Shown here: positions 2,835-57,522 of the stretch, in pieces
How positions within the stretch are numbered: position 1 is the first letter of the stretch
Layout: every line of letters starts with the position of its first letter
IMG/VR virus record: IMGVR_UViG_3300045988_160012
Strand: one strand, 5' to 3'
Length of the DNA: 64,000 bases
DNA from: a virus
Translations under genes and position numbers: made by a program
Notes under the pieces: generated by a model
The model's database searches: none
The model's input: only the letters and a program-made list of their open reading frames with translations
Told to the model about the DNA's origin: nothing

Positions 2835-3788
2835 CTAAATACCCAAATCAAGTTTTAATTGAGGGCGAATTGGCTCATAATCCAATAAGGTAAAATCTTC
2901 AATGATAAAATCATAAAAATTATTCTTTTCTGGATTAAGTATCAATTCTGGACGAATTATTTCATCCTCTTCATGAACAAGTAATTTTTTAAATCTATTA
3001 AAAATTTCTATTGCCTGTTCTTCATGACGGTCATAAATCTGCTCATTTTGTACAAAATGGCAAAATACACCAGCTTTATATCCTGTATGTCTTGCAATCA
3101 TCATGAGCAATGCTGCATACTGAATTTCATTCATTCCTCCAGCTCCAGATGCAGTAAGCATATCTCCACTTCTTTGAATGAGTGTCATATCAAGATATTC
3201 TCCTCTAACATTCCACATTGTAAGGAAAGCACATGGAGCAAGACCTTCTGTTTCTGCTAAATCTGTTTCTTGCCAAAGAGACATAATTTTTCTTCTGCCA
3301 TAAGGGTCTGTTTTAATATCATTGATAAGTTTATTTACAAGGTCATATCTTTTAACAGTAGCTCCGTATCTTTGACCAATTGTACCATCTCCAATGTTCC
3401 AAGGTGACCACCATGATACTCCCATTTCTTCCATTTCAGAAATAACATTCGTGGGTTTCTGATAGATTGTAAAGATTTCTCTGATAGCTGTTTTCCAAGC
3501 CATCGGTCTGAGAGTGCAAATAGGAAATTCACCTTTTGATAAATCATATTTTCTCATTACCTGATTAATTGAAATTGTATGGGCTGGTGTTCCATCCGCA
3601 TATTTTGGTCTGGGATTAACGTCTTTATATCCCTCTGAAAGAATATCACATATTTCGTGTCCTAAATATCTATCTGCTTTAGTCATTAGTTCGTCCTCCT
3701 GTATATAATGTTGGATTGGTGGTAAATAACATATTCGCCACTTTGAATAATTCTTCTCTAGTGTTATCAACAGTTCCATCAATAACAT
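2835..3788 (-). CDS. thyA: thymidylate synthase (ThyA family)
   Basis: ThyA-like LAPCAF...W (P-C active site) and QRSGDMLTASGAGGMNEIQYAALLMMIA (cf. QRSxDxxLGxPFNIASYALL). The Asn in GMNEIQY is retained, suggesting dUMP specificity. An adjacent DHFR supports a genuine TS. Confidence 0.75.
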   Translation of the reverse strand: MLLMELLITLEKNYSKWRICYLPPIQHYIQEDELMTKADRYLGHEICDILSEGYKDVNPRPKYADGTPAHTISINQVMRKYDLSKGEFPICTLRPMAWKTAIREIFTIYQKPTNVISEMEEMGVSWWSPWNIGDGTIGQRYGATVKRYDLVNKLINDIKTDPYGRRKIMSLWQETDLAETEGLAPCAFLTMWNVRGEYLDMTLIQRSGDMLTASGAGGMNEIQYAALLMMIARHTGYKAGVFCHFVQNEQIYDRHEEQAIEIFNRFKKLLVHEEDEIIRPELILNPEKNNFYDFIIEDFTLLDYEPIRPQLKLDLGI

Positions 3789-5154
3789 ATGCCAAACAAA
3801 GATTCAGTATTTTACCTATTAGCTTCCCTTCTGGAATACCGATTTCTATTAAATCTCTGCCATTGATAGCAAGGTCTTTTAATTGAAAACATTCTGATTG
3901 TTCAACTATCCAGTCTAAAATTTCTGATACTTTATATACCTTTTCAAGTCTCAATTCTATATCTTTGGATGATTGACCTTTAATATCATGTGTTCTTAAA
4001 ACAAGCAATCTTCTTAATTGCTTTTCGCCCAATTTATTCAACAGTCTTTTTACTGCTGCTTTAGTCGGAGTTAAAGTAACATCATGACAATCAATTAATT
4101 GTGATACTGATTCAACAATATCATTGCTATAGCGAAGTCTTTTTAAAACTTCTTGAGCAATAGCATATGATGAATGTGCATGACCATAAAAATGACCAAT
4201 GCCATTTTCATCTTCAACATAATTGTTTGGCTTTCCTATGTCATGAAGGAAAATAGCCAATCTGGTAATTAAATCTGTATCTGAAGTAACATCATCCATG
4301 CAATGTAATGTATGTTCCCAGACATCATATAAATGATATGGATTATTTTGTTTAAAGCCAATCATAGGCTTAATCTCAGGAATTATCTGATAAATTACAT
4401 CCGCATATTCTCTTAATACTTCATTGCCACAATTCTCACTCATAAGAATTTTTGACAATTCCTGTGAAATACGTTCCTGAGAGATATTATCAAGTAATTC
4501 CCTTTCACTATGTATTGCCTGAGATGTATTTTCTTCAATTATAAATTTTAATTGAGCTGCAAATCTTATAGCTCTAAGTATTCTCAAACCATCTTCTTTA
4601 AATCTCTCTTGGGGATTTCCAACACAACAAATTATTTTATTTCTTATATCTTTTATTCCATCATAAAAATCCTGAAATCCGATATATTGGTTGTATGTAA
4701 TTGTATTGATTGTAAAGTCTCTTCTGGATAAATCTTCAAGAAGATTGTTTGTAAATGTTACTTTGTCTGGTCTACGATTATCGGAATATTTACCATCATT
4801 TCTAAAGGTTGTTATTTCATATCCTTCACCATCAAGTACAAAAGTAACTGTTCCATGTTTTAGTCCTGTTAGAACAATCTGAATATTTCTCTCATCTCTT
4901 TTACAAATAGTTTCTATAATAGAAATCATTTCGTTTGGTGTAGCATTTGTGGTAATATCCCAGTCATGAGGGATACGATTCATACACATATCCCTCACAC
5001 AACCACCAACCAAATAAGCCTGAAATCTTCCGTATTTTGTAAGAATATAGATGAGGTATTTTGCTCCTTCAGGAATCATGGCATTATTAAATGTCATATA
5101 CCCTCTATCACTTGCAATCATCTGTTTTCTCCTCTTTTTCAACAATATCCTCAA
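3679..5154 (-). CDS. cca: CCA-adding tRNA nucleotidyltransferase with HD domain
   Basis: LVGGCVRDMCMNRIPHDWDITT (GGxVRD polbeta-NTase head) plus an HD motif FLHDIGK. Confidence 0.8.
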   Translation of the reverse strand: MRILLKKRRKQMIASDRGYMTFNNAMIPEGAKYLIYILTKYGRFQAYLVGGCVRDMCMNRIPHDWDITTNATPNEMISIIETICKRDERNIQIVLTGLKHGTVTFVLDGEGYEITTFRNDGKYSDNRRPDKVTFTNNLLEDLSRRDFTINTITYNQYIGFQDFYDGIKDIRNKIICCVGNPQERFKEDGLRILRAIRFAAQLKFIIEENTSQAIHSERELLDNISQERISQELSKILMSENCGNEVLREYADVIYQIIPEIKPMIGFKQNNPYHLYDVWEHTLHCMDDVTSDTDLITRLAIFLHDIGKPNNYVEDENGIGHFYGHAHSSYAIAQEVLKRLRYSNDIVESVSQLIDCHDVTLTPTKAAVKRLLNKLGEKQLRRLLVLRTHDIKGQSSKDIELRLEKVYKVSEILDWIVEQSECFQLKDLAINGRDLIEIGIPEGKLIGKILNLCLAYVIDGTVDNTREELFKVANMLFTTNPTLYTGGRTND

Positions 5155-5926
5155 TACATTTGTATAAATATGGTGGTAAATATGTTTTGAGGATTTTCTT
5201 ATTATCTAATCCTGTTGTTTTATAATAGGCTTCTGCAATACCTCCTGATATGCAACACATAGTATCCATATCACAATGTAAACTTAGACAATTTCTCATA
5301 CAGCTCTCATAATCATGACTTTCAATAAAACACTGGATTGCTACTGGTACAGTTAATTCACATCTGTCACTCCAAACATATGATTTTTGAAGTTCTTCCA
5401 TTGTTTGTGTACCATCATATAATTTACCTTTGTAGGTCAGTTGACAAATATTTAGAATATCATTTTTACTATATCCTGAATTTGCCATTGCAATAGCAGA
5501 TGCAGTCATACAAGCTCCTGTAATACCACCTTCTGTATTATGTGTGCATATTGCAGAACTCTTGGACAATGCTATGACAGAATTAATGTCGTGTACTATA
5601 TCTCCTATATATGCAACTCTCATAGCTGAACCATTTCCAGTTGATTTATAATCAGTGATTTTATTGTTCAACCATTTAAAGAACATATCACCATATCCCA
5701 CATCTGGGAATTTTCTGCCAAACTCTTTATAGGCTTTTCCAAAATTACCTTTATAATGGTCAATTGCATATTTAGTCGCAATAGCCAATACAGTATCATC
5801 GGTAAATTCATTCAAGTAACCATTGAAAAGTGGACAATGTTCCCAATCTAATGTTTCTGGTCTTTGGTCTGGAAATTCAAATCGACTTCCAATAATATCT
5901 CCAATAATTGCTCCTATTAGTGCCAT
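5108..5926 (-). CDS. ADP-ribosylglycohydrolase (ARH/DraG family)
   Basis: N-terminus MALIGAIIGDIIGSRFEF and overall ARH-like composition. Confidence 0.65.
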   Translation of the reverse strand: MALIGAIIGDIIGSRFEFPDQRPETLDWEHCPLFNGYLNEFTDDTVLAIATKYAIDHYKGNFGKAYKEFGRKFPDVGYGDMFFKWLNNKITDYKSTGNGSAMRVAYIGDIVHDINSVIALSKSSAICTHNTEGGITGACMTASAIAMANSGYSKNDILNICQLTYKGKLYDGTQTMEELQKSYVWSDRCELTVPVAIQCFIESHDYESCMRNCLSLHCDMDTMCCISGGIAEAYYKTTGLDNKKILKTYLPPYLYKCIEDIVEKEEKTDDCK

Positions 5927-6954
5927 TAAATTTCACCTCTTACTACTCTTTCATTTACACTTGCCATAAATTCATTGATACGTTTATAATCAGGATTGTC
6001 TGGTAAATCCGTATTTTGTTTTGCATATTCGAATCGTTTCTGAAGATTTTCTACAATAGAAAAGAACTCTTCGGTAGGCTGACGGTTGACATCAAGATAT
6101 TTACCATTTCTGATTTCCATTAAAAAGTCATGGTCGTTTTCTCTATAAGTAATAATTTCTTTCTTCTCAAGAATATCTATTACCATAAGATAAAGCCTGA
6201 TTAAATGCATCATGTGTTTTGCCAATTTACCATGCTCAATAGCATTTTTATTTCGTTTTCCTATTTTGGCATAGTCTTTTACAATGTTATTCATTTCGCT
6301 CCACATTGATTTATAATCTCTAAGTGGATAATGAGAAAGTGTTACATCCATATAAATCTCAGTATCCATTTCTTCTTGATGAGATTTATCAATATAAAGT
6401 TTTATTGAATCTTCATCAAATGGAAAATACTTATTTTTAAAGTCATATGAAGCATTTCGAATACTGTTAAGGATATGCTTCTCTCTCTCAGACTGTCCTA
6501 CAAGTCTTGCTGCTTTGTTGTCCAATCTTCGTAATTGACTATATGCATAACCACCAAATGATTGAATTGCTCTTTTGGATAGGAACAAATCTTTATTATC
6601 CAAAAGTTCCTGACCAATTGGAGAAACATATAAATAATGTTCGGGTTTAAGTCCAAGTAATTCAATTGTATTTGGGTTGCAATTACTCAATAAATGAATG
6701 AGTTTATTGAGTGAATAAATAGTTGTATCTGTAGCTTCGTTGCAACACTGTTCAAAATTCACATTTGTTAAAATTTCAATTTTGCTATTTATTGCACAAC
6801 CACGAACATCTAAGTCGGATGTTTCAATATTCGTACCATAGGCATGAAAACCGCCTAATCCTAACAGGATAATATTATTTCCTAAATGTGGGTCTGTTCT
6901 AAGGAAATCATATTCTTCTGATTTCAATTTTTCTTTAATCTGTTCAATATTCAT
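5926..6954 (-). CDS. nucleotidyltransferase-fold protein (polbeta superfamily) of unknown specificity
   Basis: LLGLGGFHAYGTNIETSDLDVRG matches hG[GS]x9-13DhD. Large alpha-helical C-terminal region. Confidence 0.45.
   Translation of the reverse strand: MNIEQIKEKLKSEEYDFLRTDPHLGNNIILLGLGGFHAYGTNIETSDLDVRGCAINSKIEILTNVNFEQCCNEATDTTIYSLNKLIHLLSNCNPNTIELLGLKPEHYLYVSPIGQELLDNKDLFLSKRAIQSFGGYAYSQLRRLDNKAARLVGQSEREKHILNSIRNASYDFKNKYFPFDEDSIKLYIDKSHQEEMDTEIYMDVTLSHYPLRDYKSMWSEMNNIVKDYAKIGKRNKNAIEHGKLAKHMMHLIRLYLMVIDILEKKEIITYRENDHDFLMEIRNGKYLDVNRQPTEEFFSIVENLQKRFEYAKQNTDLPDNPDYKRINEFMASVNERVVRGEI

Positions 6955-15624: not shown

Positions 15625-15625
<1 letters not shown>
15549..15625 (-). promoter_or_regulatory. 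tandem promoter region: sigma70-like element copy 2 (15587-15625) followed by phage 18-bp motif (15549-15566) upstream of nrdD
   Basis: Same ~40-bp element as at 205-248 and 32430-32472; motif TGTATAACCTTAATAGTT. Confidence 0.45.
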
Positions 15626-18223
<2,598 letters not shown>

Positions 18224-32488: not shown

Positions 32489-32914
32489 TTATTTTAAATA
32501 AAAATTTGCTACGTGTTCTACCAATTCTCGCATTGAATCACATATACGTGTACTACACTCTACCAACCAAGGATGTAATTTATTACCGTCCTTATTTAAT
32601 GCAATAACAGGTATATGATATTCTTTGGCTATCATCAACTCCATAGCAGTACCAATACTTTTAGGGTTATTAAAATTAACCACCACTAAATCTGCTTTTC
32701 TAAGCCATGCCAATTCAAACTCCATAGCTTCTCTTTCAGATTTATGTTCTGTTGTTGCTGGAGAATAATATTCTGGTGGGCTAAAAAATATTGGCTTTTT
32801 GATAATATCATAATCACCATATAATAATGCATCTTTAACTTGATTTCTCCATTTTAGCTGTTCTTCTAATGTATAGCCAGACATTCCACCAGCCATATAA
32901 ATACGCACATCCAT
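32489..32914 (-). CDS. nucleoside 2-deoxyribosyltransferase-like (Rossmann) protein
   Basis: IYMAGGMSG ... E..W...ADLVVV pattern. Confidence 0.4.
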   Translation of the reverse strand: MDVRIYMAGGMSGYTLEEQLKWRNQVKDALLYGDYDIIKKPIFFSPPEYYSPATTEHKSEREAMEFELAWLRKADLVVVNFNNPKSIGTAMELMIAKEYHIPVIALNKDGNKLHPWLVECSTRICDSMRELVEHVANFYLK

Positions 32915-33510
32915 TACATATCACCTCTCATTTGTTGATAAAATGGTACTGTCATAAGCTCTGCACGAATTTCATCATACATTTTATGAAGTCTAGGATT
33001 TACCCAACGCATCCACTCTTTACGATTATCCTTAACCATATATTCTCTAACCTGAGTAGCGGAAATTGGGATTCTTCCTCTATTAACAATTAACTGAGAC
33101 ATATCTATAATGTCCTCTGCTGCAAACCATCTGGTTCTTTCTTCATCATTTCCAGAAATCATTAATTCTGGAACTTTATAAATATATCTATCAGCATTTC
33201 CGAGAAGATATTTACCCCAATCTGGTGTAATATCATTTTCATTTGTCAAATCTGCTAATCCATATATCATAATATTTGAATTGTCACCATAGATTTCTTT
33301 GAGCATTTTGGTTCTGGTATTGATATTCAAAGGATTTCGTTCTGTGCCACATTCTTGAGCAGAACCAATCAAAATCAATACTCTATCACAAAGTTCTAAT
33401 CCTGTTTTAACCAATGATTCATGTCCTTTGTGAAAAGTCTGAAATCTACCACAAATCATTCCAACATCATATGGTTTCATATTTCCTCCTTTAGATAACA
33501 TATTATCCAA
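32914..33510 (-). CDS. nadM: nicotinamide/nicotinate mononucleotide adenylyltransferase (NadM/NMNAT-like)
   Basis: GMICGRFQTFHKGH matches the (H/T)xGH cytidylyltransferase motif as found in NadR/NadM NMNATs. Confidence 0.7.
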   Translation of the reverse strand: MDNMLSKGGNMKPYDVGMICGRFQTFHKGHESLVKTGLELCDRVLILIGSAQECGTERNPLNINTRTKMLKEIYGDNSNIMIYGLADLTNENDITPDWGKYLLGNADRYIYKVPELMISGNDEERTRWFAAEDIIDMSQLIVNRGRIPISATQVREYMVKDNRKEWMRWVNPRLHKMYDEIRAELMTVPFYQQMRGDM

Positions 33511-33865: not shown

Positions 33866-34322
33866 CCTCTTTATCCTCCTGTGAATCAGGAATCAACTCA
33901 GGATTGTCAAAAATATTACCTACAACTTCTATATTATTCAGACAAATTTCTTTACCTAAAGGATACCATTTATGCTCTGTATAATCCAAAAATACATATG
34001 CACCATAGTCTGAAGAATATGAAATTAAACCAACCATGCCCGATTGAATTGCTTTACATATATCTCCCTCAAATATCAACTGTTTATTTTTATCCAACAA
34101 ACCTGTGTCAATTTGATATACATATCTATTATCTGATATAAGAGATAAAGTCATATTACCTAAAAGGTTCTTTTTTGCTAAATATAAATCATTGTTAGGA
34201 GCAAGATAAATATTCTCTTTTACCCATGTAGTTTCCTTTTTGTCATATACTCTATACATTTGCTTCCTCCTGTTCTGCTTTCCATAAGTAAAATTTCTTT
34301 CGGAGATTACAAATATCGGCAT
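33846..34322 (-). CDS. YopX-family phage protein
   Basis: C-terminus VVGNIFDNPELI is typical of YopX. Confidence 0.55.
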   Translation of the reverse strand: MPIFVISERNFTYGKQNRRKQMYRVYDKKETTWVKENIYLAPNNDLYLAKKNLLGNMTLSLISDNRYVYQIDTGLLDKNKQLIFEGDICKAIQSGMVGLISYSSDYGAYVFLDYTEHKWYPLGKEICLNNIEVVGNIFDNPELIPDSQEDKEDGQQTL

Positions 34323-36495
34323 ATGATTTTGCAGCTTCTTTTTCTTCTGGAGTCATATTTAAGAAAGTTGATTTACACCATCCTAAAAATTCATTTTCTT
34401 CTCTAGTTAATAAACTGCCTGTCCATTTGTAATTACCATATCGTAAAACAGATTGTGCTACTCCTCTTAACTTCTTCCAATATTTATAATAAAAGAGTTT
34501 AAGCTTTGTCATATATCCCACAGAATCTTCTATTACAAATCCCTCTATATCATTACCTTTGTATTTATATCCTTCTGCTGTTACTTCATTGTACCAAGCA
34601 TAAAAATCTTCCCATGATTCAATTACAAATGCCTTTTCTTTTACCTTGATACCTAATTTAGTTGCTAATTGGAATAATTCATCATAAGGCAATTTCTCAA
34701 ACTTCATTTGATTTTTCACTACATCCAATAAAACAACTTTACTTTCTGGATATTCAATAATATGTGGGTCATTTTCCATATCACAACATTCAAAAACAAA
34801 TGATACATTATTCTCTTTGATATAATCTTTAATTTTATTCATGGTATCAGTTCCATAAAAGCGATATAAAGCCTGTCTTAAATATTCAGAAAAGCAGCCT
34901 GTAGGTGTTGATTTACTTGTAATCAGCAAATCATCTGATTCTGGATTCCAACCAACAATACCCAAAAATCCATTCTCTTTTACATAAGCTGTAACTGGAA
35001 AATGTAATTTATATTTAAGATTTCCAATTCTAGTTTCAGGTCTTTCATTAATATTAAAGAACTTATCGTATGCTCTGGCTACGATTTTATAATCCTGTGT
35101 ATCAATATAAAGTCCTCTAGCTTTATTCGTAATGGAATCCCATACACCATTTTCAAAAGCCTGTCTTGTGAAATTAAAAGAAGATACTCTACCAAATTCT
35201 TTTTCAAAAATATATTTGTTCTGTCTTAATTCTGAAACAAAAGAATATACATCAACATCTACATTTTCTGCCATTTCTGATTCTTCAATCTGTTTTGTTG
35301 GTTCTTTAAAAACAGTATTCTGGATTTCAATAGGATGTAATTTATCTTCAGTAATCTGAAGAACCCTTAGACATCCACCAAATTCAATTTCACCTTCTAA
35401 GTTAAAAGTTCTTTCGGTTGTCTGCATAGGTGATTTAACAATATTTCTATGACCATGAATCTGATACATATTATGCGGTGTATTGTCAACAAACGATTTA
35501 TCTACAATATCAGCATCCGCATATCTGCCAACACCTTTTATCATCTGTTCTGTTGCAACTTTTAACAAATTATCGTCAGGGAAATTGCTAATACCACCAT
35601 GCGTTACAATAAAAGTTTTTCCTCGATATATAAAATAGCAACACTGATTTAATCTTCGATAAAATTCTCGTACTCTTTTCTGAGATACACCAGCCTTTAC
35701 TAACTGTGGCTTTGTCACAAATTCAAATTCTTTTGAACGAGAAATCAGATTATTCGCCCACATCCATAACCATCTTTCATGATTACCTTCAAGAAAAATA
35801 ACATTTGGTAATTTACTTAACTCACACAGATAGTTTATTGTTTCTGCATTTTCAATACCTCTATCAATGTAATCTCCACAGAATATATAAAATTCATCTT
35901 CCTTAATATTTCCATTAGAATCCATATATTCTTTAAGAGCTGTATAACATCCATGAATATCACCAAAAACATGAATTTTGTTATACTGGGATAAATCCAT
36001 TGGACGATACCAGATTCTATCTAATTCCTCTGGTTTTAATACAGTAATGCCAGATGGAATCTGCTGGGTTTCAAAACGTGAATACATTTTATCAATAACT
36101 TCTTTAGGAACTCGTTTAAGTGTCTCTCTCTCTGCGTTTCTTCGCTTAGTTTCCTCAATTGGAATATCAGTCATATCAATACAGTAAATTCTATAACGAT
36201 AATTTTCAGCTAAATCTTTATACTGATTCATTTCAGATGTCTTTGAATTTGTAGCATCAATCACTGTAAATTCACCATTCTGCATACGTGTTTCCAATAT
36301 ACGAAACAATGTGTTCCATACAGTTTTTTCATTGTTTCCAGAGATAACACATTCTCCATTTATGTCTAATACTGGACTCTGACAAAGCAAACGAATATCA
36401 TCTGCTGATAAAGCATAAGGTTTTAATCCATGCTTTTCAATAAATGTACTTTTGCCACATCCAGCACTACCACGCATAAGCAACAATGCTCTCAT
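34252..36495 (-). CDS. pnkp: trifunctional polynucleotide kinase-phosphatase-ligase (bacterial Pnkp-like RNA repair enzyme)
   Basis: N-terminal P-loop kinase GSAGCGKST. Central calcineurin-like phosphoesterase (GDIHG, GDYIDRG, GNHE). C-terminal NTase/ligase-like domain with a lysine motif VKENG (KxDG/KxNG). Confidence 0.7.
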   Translation of the reverse strand: MRALLLMRGSAGCGKSTFIEKHGLKPYALSADDIRLLCQSPVLDINGECVISGNNEKTVWNTLFRILETRMQNGEFTVIDATNSKTSEMNQYKDLAENYRYRIYCIDMTDIPIEETKRRNAERETLKRVPKEVIDKMYSRFETQQIPSGITVLKPEELDRIWYRPMDLSQYNKIHVFGDIHGCYTALKEYMDSNGNIKEDEFYIFCGDYIDRGIENAETINYLCELSKLPNVIFLEGNHERWLWMWANNLISRSKEFEFVTKPQLVKAGVSQKRVREFYRRLNQCCYFIYRGKTFIVTHGGISNFPDDNLLKVATEQMIKGVGRYADADIVDKSFVDNTPHNMYQIHGHRNIVKSPMQTTERTFNLEGEIEFGGCLRVLQITEDKLHPIEIQNTVFKEPTKQIEESEMAENVDVDVYSFVSELRQNKYIFEKEFGRVSSFNFTRQAFENGVWDSITNKARGLYIDTQDYKIVARAYDKFFNINERPETRIGNLKYKLHFPVTAYVKENGFLGIVGWNPESDDLLITSKSTPTGCFSEYLRQALYRFYGTDTMNKIKDYIKENNVSFVFECCDMENDPHIIEYPESKVVLLDVVKNQMKFEKLPYDELFQLATKLGIKVKEKAFVIESWEDFYAWYNEVTAEGYKYKGNDIEGFVIEDSVGYMTKLKLFYYKYWKKLRGVAQSVLRYGNYKWTGSLLTREENEFLGWCKSTFLNMTPEEKEAAKSYADICNLRKKFYLWKAEQEEANV

Positions 36496-36521: not shown

Positions 36522-36992
36522 TTAATTGTTAAGTAATCTATCAACAACCTGATTGATTAATTTGCTGTCTGCCTTTCCTTTTAATTTCGGCATAATATTT
36601 TTCATAACCATCCCTTTAATCTTTGGACTGATTTTTACATTGACTCCTGTAAGCTCAATAAGTTCACTCTCAATATACTTTTCAAGCTCATTTTCAGTCA
36701 TTTGAGTAGGTAAATATTCACTTAAAATTCCAATTTTAAGTGTAGTAGAAGCATACAAATCAGTATTTTCCTTACCCTTTAAAGCGTCCTTCGTCTGATT
36801 GAGCTGCTTAACTTCTTTTTGAATTGCCTGAAGAATAACATCATTAGGAATATCTTCAGTAACATTGGTCGGATTCTTTTCTTTTACAATAGCTTTCGCT
36901 TTATCAACCACCATCTTTAATACATCTCTCTTTTCTGTATCTTTGTTCTTCATAGCAGTCTTAATCTCTTCTTTAATCTGTAAATATAACAT
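36522..36992 (-). CDS. GatB/YqeY-domain protein
   Basis: Overall YqeY-like pattern (MLYLQIKEEIKTAMKNKD..RD.LK..). Confidence 0.55.
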   Translation of the reverse strand: MLYLQIKEEIKTAMKNKDTEKRDVLKMVVDKAKAIVKEKNPTNVTEDIPNDVILQAIQKEVKQLNQTKDALKGKENTDLYASTTLKIGILSEYLPTQMTENELEKYIESELIELTGVNVKISPKIKGMVMKNIMPKLKGKADSKLINQVVDRLLNN

Positions 36993-37382: not shown

Positions 37383-37903
37383 GCATCCTCCTTATATTTA
37401 GGGTGTACATAACACATAATATATCTGTTATCTTTTTCATAAATTCTTTTTACTACGCAAGATTTATATTCTGTACCCATCATTGCACTTGCATTTCCCA
37501 TCACAACTCCAATTTGATTGTTGATAACATCAACACTTATTACAATACCAACCTGACTTGGATAGGTATGTTCATATCCATTACTCTGCCAATCAAAATA
37601 AACAATATCTCCAATTTTAGGACGATAATATTTAGAAGAATATATTCTTGCTCCATTTTTCTTAAACAACTGCAATTGATGATAACAAGAACACTCTGTA
37701 GGAATATCTTTTTCTAATCCAGCATATAAAGCCATAACAGATACAAATATACAACCCCATGCATCTCTTCGCATAACCTTATATCCTCTCGGAATATTCT
37801 TTTGCGAATTATATTTATTTATCATTTCTAAATACATTCTGCTATCTTCATACATTCCTATATGCTTTTTAGTAAAATATATTAATCTGTCTACTTTACT
37901 CAT
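37373..37903 (-). CDS. CHAP/NlpC-P60-like cysteine peptidase domain protein
   Basis: Cys (WGCIFVS) then GDIVYFDW...QVGIV (Cys-His papain-like arrangement). Confidence 0.4.
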   Translation of the reverse strand: MSKVDRLIYFTKKHIGMYEDSRMYLEMINKYNSQKNIPRGYKVMRRDAWGCIFVSVMALYAGLEKDIPTECSCYHQLQLFKKNGARIYSSKYYRPKIGDIVYFDWQSNGYEHTYPSQVGIVISVDVINNQIGVVMGNASAMMGTEYKSCVVKRIYEKDNRYIMCYVHPKYKEDAWK

Positions 37904-38535
37904 TATCGTTTTACCTTATCATACACATCAAAATCAAATAGTAAGAACTTTCTACTTGCTAGATAATCACACATATGTACAAACTCTTCGATTCCAAGTT
38001 TGGGCTTTGGAAGAACAATACCTTTTGCATACGGAGCTGTGTTCCATTCACCCATATGCGAAGCGATACAACTGTGAACCAATGGAATAATCGCCTTCAT
38101 ATAATCCATATTCTCATTTGTCACATATTTGGCAGCAGTATTTTTAAACAAAGTTGCTGCTAACAATGGATGGTCAAATCGTGTACCATGCTTCGGAGTA
38201 TCATCAGGCTTCATACAATCATGTAAAATTAAAGCTGCATAAGCTACATCCTTATAAATCATGATTGTTTCGTAATCATCAGCTCCAACACCCAAAGCGA
38301 TATTCTTAAAAATATCAGTTTCAATCATGCTATGAGCGATTCCAACTGCTGCTCTAACGTGTCTAACTAAACCACCATCACCTAATGAATACACTGGATG
38401 ATACTTTCCAGAACTAGATGCTGGAATGGTTTGAATACATTCTGGAGAAGCATCCAATGTATCTACCACAATCTTTTTTAATGTCTCATCAGAAATATAT
38501 CCAATTTCTTTTGTAAATAACTCAGATGTTTTCAT
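37903..38535 (-). CDS. HD-domain phosphohydrolase
   Basis: ALILHDCMKPDD (HD dyad) and additional His/Asp. Confidence 0.5.
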   Translation of the reverse strand: MKTSELFTKEIGYISDETLKKIVVDTLDASPECIQTIPASSSGKYHPVYSLGDGGLVRHVRAAVGIAHSMIETDIFKNIALGVGADDYETIMIYKDVAYAALILHDCMKPDDTPKHGTRFDHPLLAATLFKNTAAKYVTNENMDYMKAIIPLVHSCIASHMGEWNTAPYAKGIVLPKPKLGIEEFVHMCDYLASRKFLLFDFDVYDKVKR

Positions 38536-39020: not shown

Positions 39021-40169
39021 TTACTCTATTAATAATTGAATCTGCTTCTGCATTTCATGTATAACCTTATCAGTTATATCTGTTGTAATATTGTCTGGTA
39101 GAGTAATTCTTAACGACTTTACTGCTTCTTCATCAGACAATCCTATAGCTTTCAATACATGAGATGGCACTGAGGAATGTGAATTACAAGCTGAACCAGC
39201 GGATACATATATATCACACAAATCCAACAAGTATATCATTGCTTCCCCCATTACATTTTGATTAAAAGTAATATTGATATTATTGGGAAGTCTGTCAGTA
39301 TATTGACCATTAAGCTTGCAACCAATTTTATCTAACAATTCACCAATCATATAGTCTCTTTGTTTTATTGTTGTAAGATATTTTTTCTGTTTCATATCTA
39401 CAGAACATAATTCAACTGCTTTAGCAAATCCCATTATATAAGGAAGGTTCTCTGTTCCACCTCTTAATCCATTCATTTGACTACCGTAAATCAACGGACT
39501 GATTTTTACATCTTCTTTTTTATATAAGATACCAATTCCTTTTGGTGTACCAATCTTATGTCCACTGGCACTCAACATATCAATTTTAGATGCCTTCACA
39601 TCAATTGGAATATGACCAAAAGCTTGTACTGCATCAGTATGAAATATTGCTCCATATTTATGTACAGTTAAAGCAATATCGTGAATATGTTGAATTGTTC
39701 CAATTTCATTATTTGCATATTGAATAGACACTAAAATATCTTCTCCACTTTTCTGTGAAATCACATATTTTAAAGTATCTTCTAAAGCTCTTAAATCAAT
39801 ACAACCGTTTGTATCAACATCTATAAAGTGAACATCAACCCCAATACCATCCACACATGACAATATAGATTTATGTTCGATTACAGAAGTTATAACTGAA
39901 GGTATTCTACCCTTTCTCAAACGATTTTGTACAAAGCCCTGTATCGCCCAACAATTACTTTCGCTTCCACAACTGGTAAAATATACTTCATACATTTCTG
40001 AATTAAGGAAGTGTGCTACTGTTTCTTTTGCAGATTTTAATGCATTAGCAGCTTCTTGAGCTGGACTATATAAAGATGATGGATTATACCACATATCCAT
40101 ATAAGAATAAATTGTATCTAAAACCTCTTTCTTTGGTTTAGTTGTTGCTGCTTCATCCAGATATATCAC
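39021..40169 (-). CDS. cysteine desulfurase (class V aminotransferase, IscS/NifS/DndA-like)
   Basis: MIYLDEAATTKP start; PLP-lysine region SASGHKIGTPKGIGILY; active-site Cys region SAGSACNSH. Confidence 0.8.
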   Translation of the reverse strand: MIYLDEAATTKPKKEVLDTIYSYMDMWYNPSSLYSPAQEAANALKSAKETVAHFLNSEMYEVYFTSCGSESNCWAIQGFVQNRLRKGRIPSVITSVIEHKSILSCVDGIGVDVHFIDVDTNGCIDLRALEDTLKYVISQKSGEDILVSIQYANNEIGTIQHIHDIALTVHKYGAIFHTDAVQAFGHIPIDVKASKIDMLSASGHKIGTPKGIGILYKKEDVKISPLIYGSQMNGLRGGTENLPYIMGFAKAVELCSVDMKQKKYLTTIKQRDYMIGELLDKIGCKLNGQYTDRLPNNINITFNQNVMGEAMIYLLDLCDIYVSAGSACNSHSSVPSHVLKAIGLSDEEAVKSLRITLPDNITTDITDKVIHEMQKQIQLLIE

Positions 40170-42298: not shown

Positions 42299-42850
42299 TT
42301 AATCAAACAAATTTGTTGGTGCATCATCTGAAACATCAAAATCCAATTTCTGATAATCTCCTTTTTCATATCCCATTAGTCCAAGAATCTGCTTATTAGG
42401 AGAATGTTTTACATACGCATTATACTTCGTAACCCATGTATTATAATTTGTTCTCACATTGGCAATTTTATTTTCTGTTGTAGACAATTCATTCATAAGT
42501 TCCTTATAATTACTTGAACTCTGTAATTCTGGATATGCTTCAGCAACCGCTTTAATCTGAGTGGTAATCTCTGCTACTGCTGCATCACTCTTTGTTCCTC
42601 TGGAATCAACTACTGCCATCAAGGTGTCATATTCATGTTTATCGTAAGCCTTTACGCAATCTACCAGATTAGGAATCAAATCGGCTCTTCTCTTTTCCTG
42701 AATCTTGATTTCAGATTTAGCAGTTGTAATCTGTTCCTCATAAGAAATTGCTTTGTTCTGTACTCCCCAGAACCCAAATGTAAATGTTCCGATAATTGCT
42801 ACAATAATCGCCATAATAATCAATGGCAGCTTCCATGATTTAGTTTTCAT
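42299..42850 (-). CDS. lemA: LemA-family membrane protein
   Basis: N-terminal TM then KSEIKIQEKRRADLIPNLV...YDKHE, typical of LemA. Confidence 0.6.
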   Translation of the reverse strand: MKTKSWKLPLIIMAIIVAIIGTFTFGFWGVQNKAISYEEQITTAKSEIKIQEKRRADLIPNLVDCVKAYDKHEYDTLMAVVDSRGTKSDAAVAEITTQIKAVAEAYPELQSSSNYKELMNELSTTENKIANVRTNYNTWVTKYNAYVKHSPNKQILGLMGYEKGDYQKLDFDVSDDAPTNLFD

Positions 42851-43190: not shown

Positions 43191-44090
43191 CTATTCAATC
43201 TTTACACCAATAAACTCAAGCACTTCTTTTAACCCCAACCCACCTTCTGACATAGGCTTCATACAATATTGCCATAATTTTGGATGAGTGATTTTTAGGC
43301 TTTGAAATCTATTCGGTTCTTTTTCAAGGTGACATCCATACATACAAAAGACGCATCCTGTTCTGTTACACTTTGTTGTCTGCCATTTTCCTTTATCATC
43401 CTGTATAATCTCTCCATATACAGGAGCATAAGGTAAATTATATTTCTTAATATATTCAAGAATATCTTGCTCTGTCCAAAATGATAGTGGTTGAGAAGTT
43501 GGTCGTTTTGTATCAAAAGCATTACATCCATGTACTTTCCATGCAGTTTTTCTTGCCTGACTCTCACAAGCCATAGTGCCGATTATTGGATGATTACCTG
43601 TTTCTTTTTCATATTTCTTTGCTGGCTTCTTTTTCATAACATTGCAACATTTATTACTAATAAGAAATGGAGCTTCTAATAAGAATTTCCATTTTTCACA
43701 ATTATAAATGCTTTTATTTCCATTCTTATCCAGCAATTCTCCATTTAATCTTTTTATCCGATATGTATATTTTCCTGTTGTTTCATGCCTTCTAGCTTCC
43801 TCAATAACCTGAGAGATTTCTTTACTTACAATCGGATAACCATATGTTTGAATTACTGTTTTGAAATTCATTTCAGGTCTTACCCATGTAACATTTTCAA
43901 CCGATTTTACAAACTCTCTCAACTCTGGATATTCAAGTCCTGTATCAACAAACACCGCTGGTGTATCTGGATAAAGCTTTCTAACCAAATGCAATAAAAC
44001 TGTGCTGTCCTTTCCTCCCGAAAAGGAAACATAAATTTGATTGTAAAAAGGAGTAAAGTTAATGGGTAAACAACCTAAAAGTAAGTTCAC
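43191..44090 (-). CDS. PAPS-reductase/DndC-like PP-loop ATP pyrophosphatase (body of gene; native 5' end currently inverted)
   Basis: YVSFSGGKDSTVLLHL (SGGxDS PP-loop) and a C-terminal Cys cluster CNRTGCVFCMYGC. The annotated start is a GTG with no RBS. Confidence 0.65.
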   Translation of the reverse strand: MNLLLGCLPINFTPFYNQIYVSFSGGKDSTVLLHLVRKLYPDTPAVFVDTGLEYPELREFVKSVENVTWVRPEMNFKTVIQTYGYPIVSKEISQVIEEARRHETTGKYTYRIKRLNGELLDKNGNKSIYNCEKWKFLLEAPFLISNKCCNVMKKKPAKKYEKETGNHPIIGTMACESQARKTAWKVHGCNAFDTKRPTSQPLSFWTEQDILEYIKKYNLPYAPVYGEIIQDDKGKWQTTKCNRTGCVFCMYGCHLEKEPNRFQSLKITHPKLWQYCMKPMSEGGLGLKEVLEFIGVKIE

Positions 44091-50027: not shown

Positions 50028-50786
50028 TTAAATTGCAACAGGTAAATCATTCGGTGTATAGACTGGCATTGGTTTCAGCTTAAAAATATTCTTCTTATGC
50101 ATAGAGTCAATCTTATGTTTGATATTTTCATCTTCACATTCACCTGTTCTGATATATCTGTTAAGTGTTGCATATGAAAATCCCAGATTATCTTCATCTG
50201 TAAGTCCACACAAACCATCAATCGGAACTTTTCTTGTCAACTCTTTAGGTAATCCAAGATACTCTCCAATAGCAATTACTTCATCGGTTGTAAGCAGAGA
50301 TAACGGACTAAAATCACCAGCTCCATCACCGTAACGTGTAGCGTATCCCACCCAATCTTCACTAAGATTACAAGTATTTGCCACTCTGCCATTTAAAGTC
50401 TGTGCAATAGCATATAATGTAGCCATTCTAATTCTTGCTGGAAGATTGGTACTTGTCTGCATACTCCAATGGTCGCACAACTGAGGTTTGATTTCATGTT
50501 TCAATGATTTAATTGCTCCATGAATGTCTACCGTATAGTTTTCAATACCAAGATGGTCAACAAGTTTGTATGCCATATCAATATCTGACTGTTCACCATT
50601 TGGCATAAGAACACCAATCACTCTATCTTTTCCCAGAGCTGCTACACATAATGCAGCAACTACGCTTGAATCTTTGCCACCTGAAATACCTACTACAGCA
50701 TCACAACCATTTCCATTAAGTGAAAACCAGTCCTGAATCCATGCGATAATTTCTTTTGTTGTCTTTTCTACATTAAACTTATACAT
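50028..50786 (-). CDS. nadE: NH3-dependent NAD+ synthetase
   Basis: PP-loop VVGISGGKDSSVVAAL and NadE-like length and pattern. Confidence 0.8.
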   Translation of the reverse strand: MYKFNVEKTTKEIIAWIQDWFSLNGNGCDAVVGISGGKDSSVVAALCVAALGKDRVIGVLMPNGEQSDIDMAYKLVDHLGIENYTVDIHGAIKSLKHEIKPQLCDHWSMQTSTNLPARIRMATLYAIAQTLNGRVANTCNLSEDWVGYATRYGDGAGDFSPLSLLTTDEVIAIGEYLGLPKELTRKVPIDGLCGLTDEDNLGFSYATLNRYIRTGECEDENIKHKIDSMHKKNIFKLKPMPVYTPNDLPVAI

Positions 50787-50846
50787 TCTGTACTTTCCTT
50801 TCTATTCAATTTGAGGTGGACTTTCATCCACCTCACCAACAATTGC

Positions 50847-51374
50847 TTAACCTAAATCATATCTCCAAATTTCTACATCTACAGAAGATTTACCAAACAC
50901 ATCCTGAATAATTTTATACACATCATTCCAATCTGCACCACCTCTATAGCTTCCAATTCGATATGGCATAGCAACTGTCGCTCCAATCTTCTCAGCTTTC
51001 TCACGAACATCCAAGAAAGCCATTTTCATTGCAGTTAAATCAGTCTGCTGCTCATCCATACCAAAATTCTTCTGACCAAAAAGATTAACAATATACTGAT
51101 ACTTAGAATCATATGCTTCAACATTTTCATTCTTCATAGTATCAACCATTACCATAGCCCATGTATCAACTGGAACATACTGAACTGTTCCAAGCATTTC
51201 AATTTTATTTTTATTGCAATGCTTCACATATTTAACATATGCCTTTTCAACATGAGGGTATCTGTCAGCTACCTGTGCTGCTACACCGCTTCCCATAACA
51301 CCTAAACAATTTGTCTGGTGTACAATAAAATTTGCATCTGAATCAAAAAGATTTCCATTGATGTTCTTAATCAT
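50847..51374 (-). CDS. macrodomain protein (ADP-ribose binding/processing)
   Basis: MIKNINGNLFD...FIVHQTNCLGVMGSGVAAQV matches the macro-domain signature. The start is probably the internal Met at 51374, not the annotated 51431. Confidence 0.7.
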   Translation of the reverse strand: MIKNINGNLFDSDANFIVHQTNCLGVMGSGVAAQVADRYPHVEKAYVKYVKHCNKNKIEMLGTVQYVPVDTWAMVMVDTMKNENVEAYDSKYQYIVNLFGQKNFGMDEQQTDLTAMKMAFLDVREKAEKIGATVAMPYRIGSYRGGADWNDVYKIIQDVFGKSSVDVEIWRYDLG

Positions 51375-51387
51375 CTTTATCCCTTTC

Positions 51388-51638
51388 TTAGAATCCTTTA
51401 CTTTCTGCATGGATGCTATTTCTGATTTCATTTAATGTCTGGTTACGAACAACCTTACCATTAAGGAATACAGTCTCAAGCATATTAATATCAGACTCTT
51501 TCACATCATCTGTTACAACCTGACCCTTTTGGATTCCATCAATATATTTGATTTCTCCATCTTTGTTACGATATACTCTGACCATACCCTTCTGAGATTT
51601 CTTAACACCATCACCTGTTTTCGGGTCTTTTTGAACAA
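51388..51638 (-). pseudogene. nadV: 3' fragment (~83 codons) of the NAMPT/NadV-like gene, separated from its body by the IS insertion
   Basis: The frame is open from the IS boundary: VVQKDPKTGDGVKKSQKGMVRV...NMLETVFLNGKVVRNQTLNEIRNS. This matches the conserved NAMPT C-terminus (..VFKDP...KKG..L.HTVFKNGKV...DEIRKNA). Confidence 0.7.
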
Positions 51639-51920
51639 CCCCGCCCGACGGGTCGGACGAGGATTCCGTTGCAGCCGTCAGGATTTCTCACATTGGGATG
51701 CATTGGAACCGCGATTTAGTCCAGAGTTACGCTTTTCCTAACTTCGCCGACATCTTGCGGTGCTTTGTAAGTCAGGAACAGGATTGCCCTAGTGCCGTCC
51801 GTCCACCCCCACATTGTATCATACGATTGATACACATCCAGAAAGTGGTGACAAAAGGGCAAGATTTACAGTTACAATTCTATATTGTTTTCGGGTTACC
51901 TTGATTAAAAAGTTTATAGA
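51639..51920 (-). ncRNA. putative omegaRNA/reRNA scaffold of TnpB (3' end of tnpB through right-end hairpin)
   Basis: GC-rich, structure-rich non-coding stretch between the tnpB stop and the IS end. Its position matches the established location of TnpB guide RNAs. Confidence 0.35.
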
Positions 51921-53666: not shown

Positions 53667-53699
53667 GCAAATTACCTCGGTTGAAAAATAGGTTAACTG

Positions 53700-53755
53700 T
53701 TGCAATATCTCTTTAAATATGCTATTATTATAGCATATTTAAAGAGATATTGCAA
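53700..53755. promoter_or_regulatory. perfect 26-bp-arm palindrome (TTGCAATATCTCTTTAAATATGCTAT tatt ATAGCATATTTAAAGAGATATTGCAA) between divergent tnpB and tnpA
   Basis: Read directly; sits in the divergent promoter/operator position. Confidence 0.7.
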
Positions 53756-53786
53756 GTATCGATTGTAAAATGAACGGAGGTTTCTT

Positions 53787-54236
53787 ATGGACGATTTAAA
53801 CAGAAAACGACATGCCGTTTACAAACTCACTTATCATGCAGTGTTTGTTATTAAATATCGCAGAAGGGTAATGACAGAACCCATCATTACACACATGAGA
53901 CAGTATGCTACTCATCTGATTGAACAGTGTTATCAGGGAAAGCTTCTCGAACTAAATGGAGAACCCGATCACATCCATATCCTGTTTGAACTTCCTGCAA
54001 CAGCAGCTCCATCCGTTGTTGTGTGCAGTCTTAAGACCCAACTTTCAAAAGAAGTTCGAGCAAAATTTTGGGATAAGATCAAAGATAAGCTCTGGAAGGA
54101 TAGCTTCTGGTCAGACAGTTATTTCATTACCACTACCGGAGGCGCAAACATTGAAACACTAGAAAGATATATCCAAGACCAAGGGATTGAAAAACCAAAA
54201 CGAAAATATACCAAAAGACAAGCAAAGAAAATGTGA
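53787..54236 (+). CDS. tnpA: IS200-type HuH Y1 transposase
   Basis: HuH motif DHIHILF; catalytic Tyr region FWSDSYFITTTGG; RBS GGAGG. Confidence 0.85.
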   Translation: MDDLNRKRHAVYKLTYHAVFVIKYRRRVMTEPIITHMRQYATHLIEQCYQGKLLELNGEPDHIHILFELPATAAPSVVVCSLKTQLSKEVRAKFWDKIKDKLWKDSFWSDSYFITTTGGANIETLERYIQDQGIEKPKRKYTKRQAKKM

Positions 54237-54293
54237 AAATACCATTGCACTTGATATTGATTTATTTTTTATGCCGCATTCATCCCCGCCCGA

Positions 54294-56709: not shown

Positions 56710-56751
56710 CTTTCTTTTTAGATGTATAACCTTAATAATTATAACCGTTAT

Positions 56752-57387: not shown

Positions 57388-57438
57388 AGTTTTAACTCCT
57401 TTACATTCATATTATCGTTGATTATGATTAACCAACAG

Positions 57439-57522
57439 TGCTGGTGATGGGATTCGAACCCACACGTTGTTTCCAACAATAGATTTTGAGTCTACCTTGT
57501 CTGCCAGTTCCAACACACCAGC
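57439..57522 (-). tRNA. tRNA-Leu (anticodon CAA), type II with long variable arm; no encoded CCA
   Basis: Manual cloverleaf with acceptor GCTGGTG/CACCAGC+A, anticodon loop CTCAAAA and T-loop GGTTCGAATCC. Confidence 0.8.

Follow-up and report, generated by a model that had tools for sequence, protein, structure and literature searches.

RNA repair by healing and then sealing broken ends is known from several systems that are built along different lines. In bacterial Pnkp, as represented by the Clostridium thermocellum enzyme (CthPnkp), an N-terminal P-loop 5'-kinase and a central lambda-phosphatase-like binuclear metallophosphoesterase are linked to a ligase of the Rnl4 type, and the protein works with Hen1. 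The anti-PrrC pathway of phage T4 is made up of two proteins, Pnkp and Rnl1, and the 3'-phosphatase of T4 Pnkp is a DxDxT/HAD enzyme (PMC3592404). Fungal Trl1, an enzyme of eukaryotic tRNA splicing, places its ligase at the N-terminus (LIG-KIN-CPD), ahead of a GTP-dependent kinase and a 2H cyclic phosphodiesterase. Trl1-LIG and T4 Rnl1 are autonomous ligases, whereas the Rnl4 ligase of Pnkp needs Hen1 (PMC4411300, PMC6379707); an all-helical C-domain defines the Trl1-LIG/Rnl6 clade (PMC6379707). This clade has so far been described from eukaryotes only, and the literature regards the Trl1-LIG C-domain, with its 2'-phosphate triad, as a feature of the fungal clade alone; both are sought after as antifungal targets. 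The large family of prokaryotic viruses considered here, which shares this domain and has a triad nearly identical to the fungal one, alters that view and bears on the origin of the eukaryotic tRNA ligase.

The window analyzed, a 64,000-nucleotide stretch of the virus record IMGVR_UViG_3300045988_160012, contains a minus-strand gene (34252..36495) that encodes a protein of 747 aa plus stop from an ATG, with an AAGGAGG ribosome-binding site 6 nt before it, and starts 26 nt past the stop of the preceding gene. A first-pass annotation made from the letters alone had read the product as a trifunctional kinase, metallophosphoesterase and ligase. This architecture is borne out by three Pfam matches far beyond chance, namely AAA_33 (aa 4-142, E=1.5e-19), Metallophos (aa 173-316, E=8.9e-16) and RNA_lig_T4_1 (PF09511; aa 458-672, E=1.4e-42), and by the presence of every motif it had quoted (GSAGCGKST at 9-17, GDIHG at 178-182, GDYIDRG at 207-213, GNHE at 237-240, and KENG at 506-509). 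The P-loop polynucleotide 5'-kinase module (aa 1-160; 36016..36495, minus strand, as are all segments of the gene) displays the P-loop G14-K15-S16-T17, the putative general base D32, R35, D80, and R119/R123. The binuclear metallophosphoesterase, or 2',3'-end-healing module (aa 161-395; 35311..36015), contains D179, H181, D208, R212, N238, H239, H299, and H349. A linker between healing and sealing (aa 396-430; 35206..35310) is helical in the AF2 model (helices 399-410 and 414-425), with pLDDT falling to 56 around aa 401-410. The ATP-dependent RNA ligase adenylyltransferase domain with its Rnl1/Trl1-type N-subdomain (aa 431-667; 34495..35205), supported by Pfam, profile alignment and conservation, has R460, K478-F479, motif I K506-E-N508-G509, K528-S529, motif III E569, H578, motif IV E651-G652, and motif V K664/K666. 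The KENG motif thus offers a predicted adenylylatable lysine in K506, as the first-pass annotation had supposed. The C-terminal segment (34255..34494) holds K674, R677, and R732, the counterparts of CthLIG Arg334, Arg337, and Arg389. The AF2 model of the whole protein has a mean pLDDT of 87.2 and a pTM of 0.54, so that the geometry between the domains is uncertain.

These catalytic residues are invariant in 34/34 close relatives, and also in nine sequences with identity down to 27%, which include Staphylococcus phages Twort and Clo6, Lactobacillus phage Semele, Fusobacterium phage FNU3, and Alicyclobacillus phage KKP_3916. Across a broader set of 150 representatives, clustered at 50% identity, R460, K478, F479, K506, E569, E651-G652, and K664/K666 are each kept in at least 145. 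At the position equivalent to His189 of CthPnkp in the phosphoesterase, 29 of 102 representatives form a natural subclade with Gln, the other catalytic residues being intact.

The sealing module is of the Trl1-LIG/Rnl6 type rather than the Hen1-dependent Rnl4 type. Its profile alignment matches the Trl1-LIG structures 9qw7, 6n0v, and 6n67, with motif I KENG set against the KENG/KANG of Trl1 and the ligase residues listed for the 150 representatives set against those of CthLIG. It combines an Rnl1-like N-subdomain (equivalents of Arg99, Lys120, and Phe121) and motifs I, III, IV, and V with the all-helical C-domain that is the signature of this clade. The putative counterparts of the fungal His-Arg-Arg triad of the 2'-PO4 pocket are H578, K674, and R677, with Lys in place of the first Arg; H578 lies 9 residues past the motif III Glu, exactly as in fungi. 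H578 is kept in 149/150 representatives, the K674 position in 149/150 (K or R, with Arg in 4/150) and R677 in 147/150, and all three are retained in 89/89 loci examined. Sequence identity to Trl1 LIG (Chaetomium 6n0t/6n67/8rbj, Candida glabrata 9qw7) is about 21-23%. The relationship is confined to this module: the ligase is C-terminal in the phage protein, the order thus being inverted relative to Trl1, the protein has neither a Trl1-type kinase nor a 2H cyclic phosphodiesterase, its Pnkp-type kinase and binuclear metallophosphoesterase are unrelated to those healing domains, and its setting is viral or prophage. T4 Rnl1 is likewise only a partial counterpart, since the match to its equivalog TIGR02308 ends at model position 248/373 and just 247 residues align, without the tRNA-specifying C-domain; moreover, one protein here corresponds to two in T4, and the 3' end is addressed by a metallophosphoesterase rather than a HAD enzyme. 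In assembling RNA repair from modules of mixed lineages, the fusion resembles the Capnocytophaga Pnkp1-Rnl-Hen1 complex (PMC4411300).

The best structural matches of all three domains are RNA repair enzymes, and the kinase and phosphatase are structurally closest to CthPnkp. These healing domains, with the CthPnkp catalytic set in the metallophosphoesterase, and the shared domain order are the part that stands of the first-pass claim that the protein has the architecture of bacterial Pnkp, the partner of Hen1. The ligase clade does not fit, and against TIGR04075, the equivalog for Pnkp, the protein reaches 73 bits (cutoff 750), over aa 3-411 only; on these two grounds we reject membership in bacterial Pnkp. 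A genuine Pnkp whose Hen1 partner lies beyond the 64-kb window could also draw on the ~79 kb of a ~143-kb phage genome that falls outside it; with the clade assignment contradicting it, we regard this explanation as highly improbable. Hen1 is not expected as a partner, because the ligase is of the Trl1-LIG/Rnl6 and not the Rnl4 type. As the first-pass annotation had noted, no Hen1-like RNA methyltransferase is present in the window: a Pfam scan of all minus-strand ORFs of at least 90 aa recovers DNA C5 and N6 methylases only. Hen1 was also not found in eight annotated or Pfam-marked neighborhoods of relatives (L001-L008). The autonomy of Trl1-LIG and T4 Rnl1 fits its absence from the window and from all neighborhoods examined, and methylation of the junction at the 2'-O position, as in the Pnkp-Hen1 system, is not predicted for the phage enzyme.

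Such fusions had been taken to be unusual for phages, a view that does not survive comparison with the databases. The protein matches PHROG 8238 over its full length (E=4e-226, aa 1-737 on profile positions 1-731/737), about 100 phage records contain a full-length copy and metagenomic homologs number in the thousands; the family is thus large and already catalogued. Its members in Staphylococcus phages K, Twort, Clo6, phiIBB-SEP1, and others share the same full-length architecture at 37-44% identity, and it extends to Lactobacillus and Fusobacterium phages and many gut Lachnospiraceae prophages. Bacteria whose genomes contain such prophages include Acetatifactor muris DSM 23669, Flintibacter muris DSM 110149, and Coprococcus aceti. 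The window protein itself comes from an unsequenced phage lineage: phage records contain no near-identical DNA, sharing at most ~170 similar bases with the 12-kb region around the gene, and the sequences most closely related to it come from metagenomic contigs of about 143-160 kb. The literature searched offers neither biochemical nor genetic evidence on members of the family, and describes no characterized phage kinase-MPE-ligase fusion or phage Rnl6; an earlier in-silico description may exist. Existing annotations conflict, ranging over "RNA ligase," "polynucleotide kinase," "Ser/Thr phosphatase," and "hypothetical." Carriers of the family include well-known phages used in therapy or as models (Staphylococcus K/Twort-like, Lactobacillus, and Fusobacterium). 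Its description as an enzyme with Pnkp-type healing and Trl1-type sealing, independent of Hen1, would mend these contradictions and predicts resistance to tRNA-cleaving defenses.

What was observed for the fusion is the identity of its domains, the intactness of its catalytic residues, its fold relationships, and its distribution; from these we infer its enzymatic steps, substrate, and biological role. It is likely, in our judgment, to be a heal-and-seal enzyme of RNA repair that works by itself, independently of Hen1, and unites bacterial Pnkp-type healing with fungal Trl1-LIG (Rnl6)-type sealing for phage counterdefense. The kinase (K15/S16, D32, R35) would move a phosphate from NTP onto the 5'-OH, and the Mn2+/Ni2+-type binuclear phosphoesterase (D179, H181, D208, R212, N238, H239, H299, H349) would open the cyclic phosphate, yielding by analogy with CthPnkp a 2'-phosphate intermediate that may or may not afterwards be removed. 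The ligase, adenylylated at K506, would then pass AMP to the 5'-phosphate and join the ends, with the helical C-domain, together with the H578/K674/R677 pocket, presumably positioning the 3' end. Given the three RNA-repair domains and their intact catalytic residues, repair of RNA, and of tRNA in particular, is the most likely reading of its role, in line with the earlier proposal of a tRNA-repair strategy; the substrates are most likely tRNAs cut by bacterial defense nucleases, so that translation might be kept running. The same genome encodes other genes for tRNA-end repair or maturation, namely a CCA-adding enzyme and RlaP, and Thg1 is present in a 65%-identity relative. Specificity for tRNA is nonetheless an assumption, because Trl1-type ligases read RNA ends and not tRNA shape (PMC11404444).

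Two further explanations would take the fusion away from RNA altogether. T4 Pnkp and related kinases also use DNA ends in vitro, and the gene is surrounded by replication and nucleotide-metabolism genes (SSB-like, AAA_24, PolIII alpha, RecD2, NrdD), as might be expected if the protein processed DNA ends as a 3'-phosphatase and 5'-kinase with nick sealing for phage replication or recombination. Against this stand the RNA repair enzymes that are the best structural matches of all three domains and the nature of Rnl1/Rnl6 ligases as joiners of single-strand RNA ends (PMC6379707). Further, with an NAD-dependent DNA ligase also encoded by the phage (15625-17604), the sealing of DNA is left to another gene, and we judge a role in DNA repair very unlikely. 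Alternatively, the central domain might be a lambda-like Ser/Thr protein phosphatase acting on host proteins, with the fusion incidental. Its lambda/NinI-like similarity (PHROG 246, E=8e-36; 1g5b, E=7e-10) and the label "serine/threonine protein phosphatase" in some GenBank records point this way. There seems to be scarcely any chance that this explanation is correct.

A different question concerns the 3'-end step of the repair pathway, because a simple T4-style (2'-OH) pathway leaves the strictly conserved 2'-phosphate-type pocket unexplained. In a yeast-type version of this step, the phosphoesterase would act essentially as a cyclic phosphodiesterase (CPD) that leaves 3'-OH,2'-PO4 ends, and the ligase would require or strongly prefer the 2'-PO4 (H578/K674/R677, N508). 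The junction would keep its 2'-PO4, which would be removed by host Tpt1/KptA with NAD+ or would persist and block recleavage, much as Hen1 2'-O-methylation does. We hold this to be a possibility, though a doubtful one. In its favor are the conservation of the triad across the representatives and loci, the fungal spacing of H578 from the motif III Glu, the natural Gln subclade at the His189-equivalent position, and the phage's NAD+/ADP-ribose toolkit with a Macro domain. Further, in wild-type CthPnkp the opening of the cyclic phosphate yields an intermediate with a 2'-phosphomonoester, and CthPnkp lacking His189 retains CPD activity only, giving products that yeast ligase seals but T4 Rnl1 does not (PMC1920235, PMC2190708). 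However, the phage enzyme retains H181, R212, and H239, the equivalents of the CthPnkp residues for the monoesterase step, and H189Q reduced CthPnkp's cyclic phosphodiesterase activity (PMC2190708). The first triad Arg is a Lys. Plant Trl1 needs 2'-PO4 without these arginines (PMC12440814), so that the triad is neither necessary nor proven sufficient for 2'-PO4 specificity. Tpt1/KptA is also absent, a tblastn search with E. coli KptA finding nothing significant in the window and 88 related loci. The same query over 50,697 phage records gave 98 matches in other phage groups, none of them in Staphylococcus or Lactobacillus phages, and the kptA gene of phiCD211 has no RNA ligase beside it; a phage-encoded Tpt1/KptA partner was therefore rejected.

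A broader proposal is that a yeast-type pathway operates in bacteria throughout this phage and prophage family: the phosphoesterase would go no further than the 2'-phosphate intermediate, or would pass it on, the H-K-R pocket of the ligase would seal 3'-OH,2'-PO4 ends, and the mark would either immunize the tRNA against recleavage without Hen1 or feed bacterial Tpt1/KptA. Its corollary would be a specific common origin with the eukaryotic Trl1 ligase module. We offer this as speculation and think it rather unlikely to hold. Tpt1/KptA is widespread in bacteria without a known yeast-like ligase (PMC6097658); if the fusion enzymes make 2'-PO4 junctions, they would be a candidate answer to this puzzle and supply the long-missing natural substrate.

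The genomic context of the preferred repair enzyme offers several genes of tRNA metabolism at varying distances. The CCA-adding tRNA nucleotidyltransferase with an HD domain (3679..5154, minus strand) has the Pfam PolyA_pol head, RNA-binding, HD, and tRNA_NucTran2_2 matches and scores 275.7 bits against NF009814, slightly below the cutoff of 290; its true start is probably an internal Met. ARAGORN and Rfam place three tRNA genes on the minus strand, tRNA-Leu(CAA) at 57438-57522, tRNA-Lys(UUU) at 57526-57599 and tRNA-Gln(UUG) at 57889-57962. In none of the three is CCA encoded after the discriminator base (G-tta, A-cta, and A-ctg, respectively). These genes are thus as first described. The functional link drawn from them to the fusion is weakly supported: all are present, but they lie ~29 kb (CCA enzyme) and ~21 kb (tRNAs) away. 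As tRNA genes without an encoded CCA are common, its absence here is no evidence for 3'-end-trimming toxins. An RlaP-family (PF10127) nucleotidyltransferase (5926..6954, minus strand; PHROG 388) provides further context, members of this family extending damaged RNA 3' ends by 1-2 nucleotides (PMC12776372).

No partner gene or defense-related neighbor is conserved across 88 related loci, where YqeY is adjacent in 2, RlaP in 5, Thg1 in 4 and the CCA enzyme in 1. Thus, a conserved gene neighborhood was rejected on these counts, and context gives no pointer to the physiological substrate. Adjacency to tRNA genes is at most a loose trait: such genes directly abut the fusion gene in the relatives L019, L022, and FNU3 and occur within the flanks at 21/60 loci, many of these being a lone tRNA-Pro(CGG) on the opposite strand, with the look of a prophage attachment site.

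Immediately upstream of the fusion gene in the window is the gene for a YqeY-family protein of 156 aa (36522..36992, minus strand; Pfam YqeY, E=1.1e-24; PDB 1ng6 YqeY, E=3e-12). The 26-nt gap between the two has no terminator, and they are probably cotranscribed. YqeY/GatB-tail domains bind tRNA (PMC1865053, PMC2811023), which makes this protein, found in this lineage only, a candidate tRNA-binding accessory that may help to steer the enzyme to tRNA. The phage also has a large NAD+/ADP-ribose toolkit, a Macro domain among it. An HD-like neighbor had no matches in a PDB sequence search, and its one match in a fold search, of weak to moderate strength, was to YhaM.

The fusion enzyme is a hybrid in which a Pnkp-type healing half is joined to a sealing half of the Trl1-LIG type, i.e., the “Rnl6” clade, which was defined via the fungal-ligase C-domain by Banerjee et al. 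(PMC6379707). The first-pass annotation had described the architecture as that of bacterial Pnkp, which holds for the healing half but not for the ligase. Three lines of evidence place the sealing half: the ranking of structural matches in Foldseek agrees with a Trl1-LIG type ligase; the family profile aligns with fungal ligases over aa 434-743 (E=2.8e-24 to 1e-17), with the alignment extending across their C-domain; and the T4 RnlA model TIGR02308 is matched only in part (positions 65-248 of 373; 31.6 bits versus a cutoff of 242), such that the resemblance to T4 RnlA is confined to its adenylyltransferase portion. The gene itself (34252..36495, minus strand) opens with ATG 6 nt downstream of an AAGGAGG ribosome-binding site and encodes 747 aa, with Pfam matches to AAA_33 (aa 4-142, E=1.5e-19), Metallophos (aa 173-316, E=8.9e-16), and RNA_lig_T4_1 (aa 458-672, E=1.4e-42). 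The translation and these domains bear out the reading frame and every motif originally quoted, namely GSAGCGKST (9-17), GDIHG (178-182), GDYIDRG (207-213), GNHE (237-240), and KENG (506-509).

The predicted catalytic residues of all three domains are invariant both in an alignment of 34 sequences with 58-98% identity and in one of 9 sequences reaching down to 27% identity, which takes in Twort, Clo6, Semele, FNU3, and KKP_3916. In the kinase these are K15, S16, D32, R35, D80, and R119; in the phosphoesterase they are D179, H181, D208, R212, N238, H239, H299, and H349, the same set that is essential in the Pnkp of Clostridium thermocellum (CthPnkp; PMC3675462); and in the ligase they are R460, K478, F479, K506, G509, E569, E651, G652, K664, and K666. 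Counting residues in the profile alignment against the LIG domain of Chaetomium Trl1 (CthLIG; native numbering of 6n0v), the adenylylatable lysine on which the original proposal hinged is present, with K506 corresponding to Lys148 of motif I. N508 likewise corresponds to Asn150, E569 to Glu218, E651 to Glu300, K664/K666 to Lys323/Lys325, R460 to Arg99, K478/F479 to Lys120/Phe121, and R732 to Arg389.

These features make it likely that the fusion enzyme is an autonomous heal-and-seal RNA repair enzyme deployed as a counter-defense against host ribotoxins. By homology, the kinase would phosphorylate the 5'-OH, the metallophosphoesterase would resolve the 2',3'-cyclic phosphate, and the Trl1-type ligase, adenylylated on K506, would join the ends. 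Trl1-type ligases recognize ends rather than tRNA shape (PMC11404444); hence, by analogy, the enzyme may accept substrates beyond tRNA.

In fungi, LIG shows a requirement or strong preference for a 3'-OH,2'-PO4 end, which its His227, Arg334, and Arg337 enforce by binding sulfate/2'-PO4. In the profile alignment, this triad corresponds to H578, K674, and R677 of the fusion ligase, with H578 lying exactly nine residues past the motif III Glu, the spacing reported for fungi. Among 150 representatives at 50% identity, His is retained in 149, the second position is Lys in 145 and Arg in 4, and the final Arg is retained in 147; across 89 loci, the triad is invariant save for one K-to-R change. Conservation of this strictness implies that the triad is functional. 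Wild-type CthPnkp opens the 2',3'-cyclic phosphate to a 2'-phosphomonoester, which it then removes; its His189, Arg237, and His264 are needed for this monoesterase step and not for the Mn-dependent diesterase step, and its H189D mutant is CPD-only, yielding products that yeast ligase seals but T4 Rnl1 does not (PMC1920235, PMC2190708). All three monoesterase-step residues are kept in the window enzyme, as H181, R212, and H239. In 29 of 102 representatives, forming a coherent subclade (including P0148, P0164, and P0171), the His189 equivalent, i.e., the metal-ligand His of GDxHG, is replaced by Gln, with the remaining catalytic residues of all three domains intact. That repair should end in a 2'-PO4 in the yeast style, rather than in a 2'-OH in the T4 style, nevertheless strikes us as rather unlikely: no Tpt1/KptA was found in a search of the window and 88 related loci, nor in the Staphylococcus or Lactobacillus phages bearing the fusion, and the first arginine position of the triad is occupied by Lys.

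The family is far from unusual for phages, contrary to the initial impression. PHROG 8238 is matched over the full length of the fusion protein (E=4e-226), and tblastn against 50,697 phage records picked up 256, of which 100 cover at least 80% of the protein. Full-length relatives are seen in Alicyclobacillus phage KKP_3916 (44% identity), Staphylococcus Twort/K-like Herelleviridae (about 38%), Fusobacterium phages (33%), and Lactobacillus phages (about 28%), under names such as “RNA ligase,” “tRNA ligase,” “polynucleotide kinase,” “serine/threonine protein phosphatase,” and “hypothetical protein.” A word-indexed search recovered 3,858 proteins at E<=1e-10, with the three-domain architecture in all of the best 120, and an exhaustive search with the ligase module (aa 426-747) recovered 2,071 clusters (50% identity) at E<=1e-3 and 619 at E<=1e-30; among the best 150 of the 2,071, 97 have a length of 650 aa or more and a C-terminal ligase. 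At least 219 species-level bacterial assemblies, for the most part from gut Lachnospiraceae and Oscillospiraceae, contain relatives at 49-58% identity; Acetatifactor muris, Flintibacter muris, Coprococcus aceti, and Flavonifractor are cultured examples. Contigs of about 145-160 kb carry some of these relatives, and others are embedded in larger ones of 250-650 kb. Because the family has been catalogued before and a specialist could guess its general role, the surprise is limited. Still, the union of bacterial Pnkp-type healing with a “fungal-only” ligase type bearing a 2'-phosphate pocket, together with the huge distribution of this uncharacterized family, makes the enzyme a worthwhile and cheap experimental target. 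Some homologs (P0044, P0072, and P0078) reach about 1,000-1,030 aa and carry HNH/NUMOD or LAGLIDADG homing-endonuclease domains, suggesting intein or intron-type insertions, and in some Staphylococcus phage records (tblastn matches H22, H26, and H28) the gene is in two pieces.

A stand-alone YqeY-family protein (36522-36992, minus) is encoded 26 nt upstream of the fusion gene with no intervening terminator, and the two are probably cotranscribed. YqeY has a fold related to the GatB tail domain, and both serve as tRNA-binding modules (PMC1865053, PMC2811023); YqeY is possibly a tRNA-targeting accessory of the fusion enzyme; it adjoins the fusion gene in only two of 88 related loci and is a lineage-specific add-on. 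Upstream of YqeY lies the gene for a conserved HD-like protein of 210 aa (37903-38535, minus), which belongs to no Pfam family, has over 3,200 homologs, and accompanies YqeY and the fusion gene in loci L006 and L007. It shows invariant H46, H59, H105-D106, H116, H122, H160, H187, and D190, and its AF2 model (pLDDT 87.9) has a single significant fold match, YhaM (9h3f, E=3.9e-4, TM 0.56), an HD-family 3'-exoribonuclease. The order HD-like/YqeY/fusion/YopX/NMNAT-like is kept in relatives with 98% and 65% identity, but those with 58% identity and every other group lack it; thus, the fusion enzyme is a self-contained module with no obligate partner. In L007, the locus of the 65%-identity relative, a Thg1-family 3'-5' nucleotidyltransferase of tRNA 5'-end repair (3739-4626) is encoded about 5 kb upstream of the fusion gene; Thg1 relatives are present in four of the 88 loci. 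In two Lachnospiraceae/Eubacteriales assemblies (L019, 7471-7805; L022, 7336-7670), the fusion gene is directly preceded by tRNA-Gln(UUG) and tRNA-Leu(CAA), species also present in the window. Many other loci, L020, L021, L028, L032, and L033 among them, have a single tRNA-Pro(CGG) on the opposite strand 1-7 kb downstream, which may mark a prophage attachment site.

The CCA-adding enzyme and the three tRNA genes first reported are indeed present, with the 3' CCA encoded in none of the latter. Encoded CCA is commonly missing from tRNA genes of phages and Firmicutes, so its absence alone does not implicate 3'-trimming toxins, as had been proposed. The ORF of the HD-containing CCA-adding enzyme, as delimited here (3679-5154), opens with a TTG and overlaps the upstream gene, its true start probably being an internal Met. 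It adjoins the gene for an ADP-ribosylglycohydrolase (5108-5926), itself next to that for an RlaP nucleotidyltransferase (5926-6954), all on the minus strand, and the trio looks like a second, separate cluster for RNA 3'-end repair or maturation. A distance of 21-29 kb separates this cluster and the tRNA genes from the fusion gene, with no conservation of the linkage. RlaP enzymes extend damaged RNA 3' ends by 1-2 nucleotides (PMC12776372), and the CCA-adding enzyme, RlaP, and tRNA genes fit a general “protect the translation apparatus” theme known from large phages (PMC7824862, PMC9503650). Two full-length but subthreshold Rfam matches lie a short way upstream of the tRNA cluster on the minus strand, to RAGATH-36 (58073-58224; 61.1 bits versus a gathering score of 70, E=1.8e-11) and RAGATH-27 (58511-58595; 48.8 versus 76.1 bits, E=3e-5), which are candidate structured noncoding RNAs; the 290-nt ORF-free spacer between tRNA-Gln and tRNA-Lys (57600-57888, minus) matches no Rfam family, even with the threshold at E<=1. 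The tRNA genes are directly upstream of an NAD+/ADP-ribose cluster, part of a toolkit (50028-57387, 32914-33510, 10913-11389, and 15625-17604, all minus) comprising NAMPT, PRPP-synthetase-like, isochorismatase/nicotinamidase-like, NAD synthase, DarG-like Macro, NMNAT-like, YpsA SLOG, and NAD-dependent DNA ligase proteins, which probably serves NAD+ reconstitution and counter-defense against ADP-ribosylation. A NifS/DndA-like cysteine desulfurase (39021-40169, minus) and a PAPS-reductase/PP-loop protein (43191-44090, minus), 3 kb apart, could act in DNA phosphorothioation or in nucleobase/tRNA thiolation; tRNA-Lys(UUU) and tRNA-Gln(UUG) normally carry s2U34.

The source is a large phage of low-GC Firmicutes. 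The window has a GC content of 30-37%, with nearly every gene on the minus strand, and encodes PolIII alpha, RecD2 helicase, NrdD/NrdG, NAD-dependent DNA ligase, thymidylate synthase, DHFR, dUTPase, a sigma factor, and endolysin-like proteins. Sequenced phages share at most about 170 bases of similar DNA with the 12-kb region around the fusion gene, and a 142,689-bp metagenomic contig that shares the gene order carries a copy with 98% protein identity. The sole clear plus-strand gene encodes an IS200-type Y1 transposase (53787-54236) beside a 594-aa ORF with no family match (51921-53705, minus); this stretch has a GC fraction of 0.36-0.38 versus about 0.32, suggesting an insertion-sequence insertion in the phage genome. 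Elsewhere are encoded two membrane-associated proteins, an SPFH/flotillin-like protein of 535 aa (60571-62178, minus) and a LemA-family protein (42299-42850, minus).
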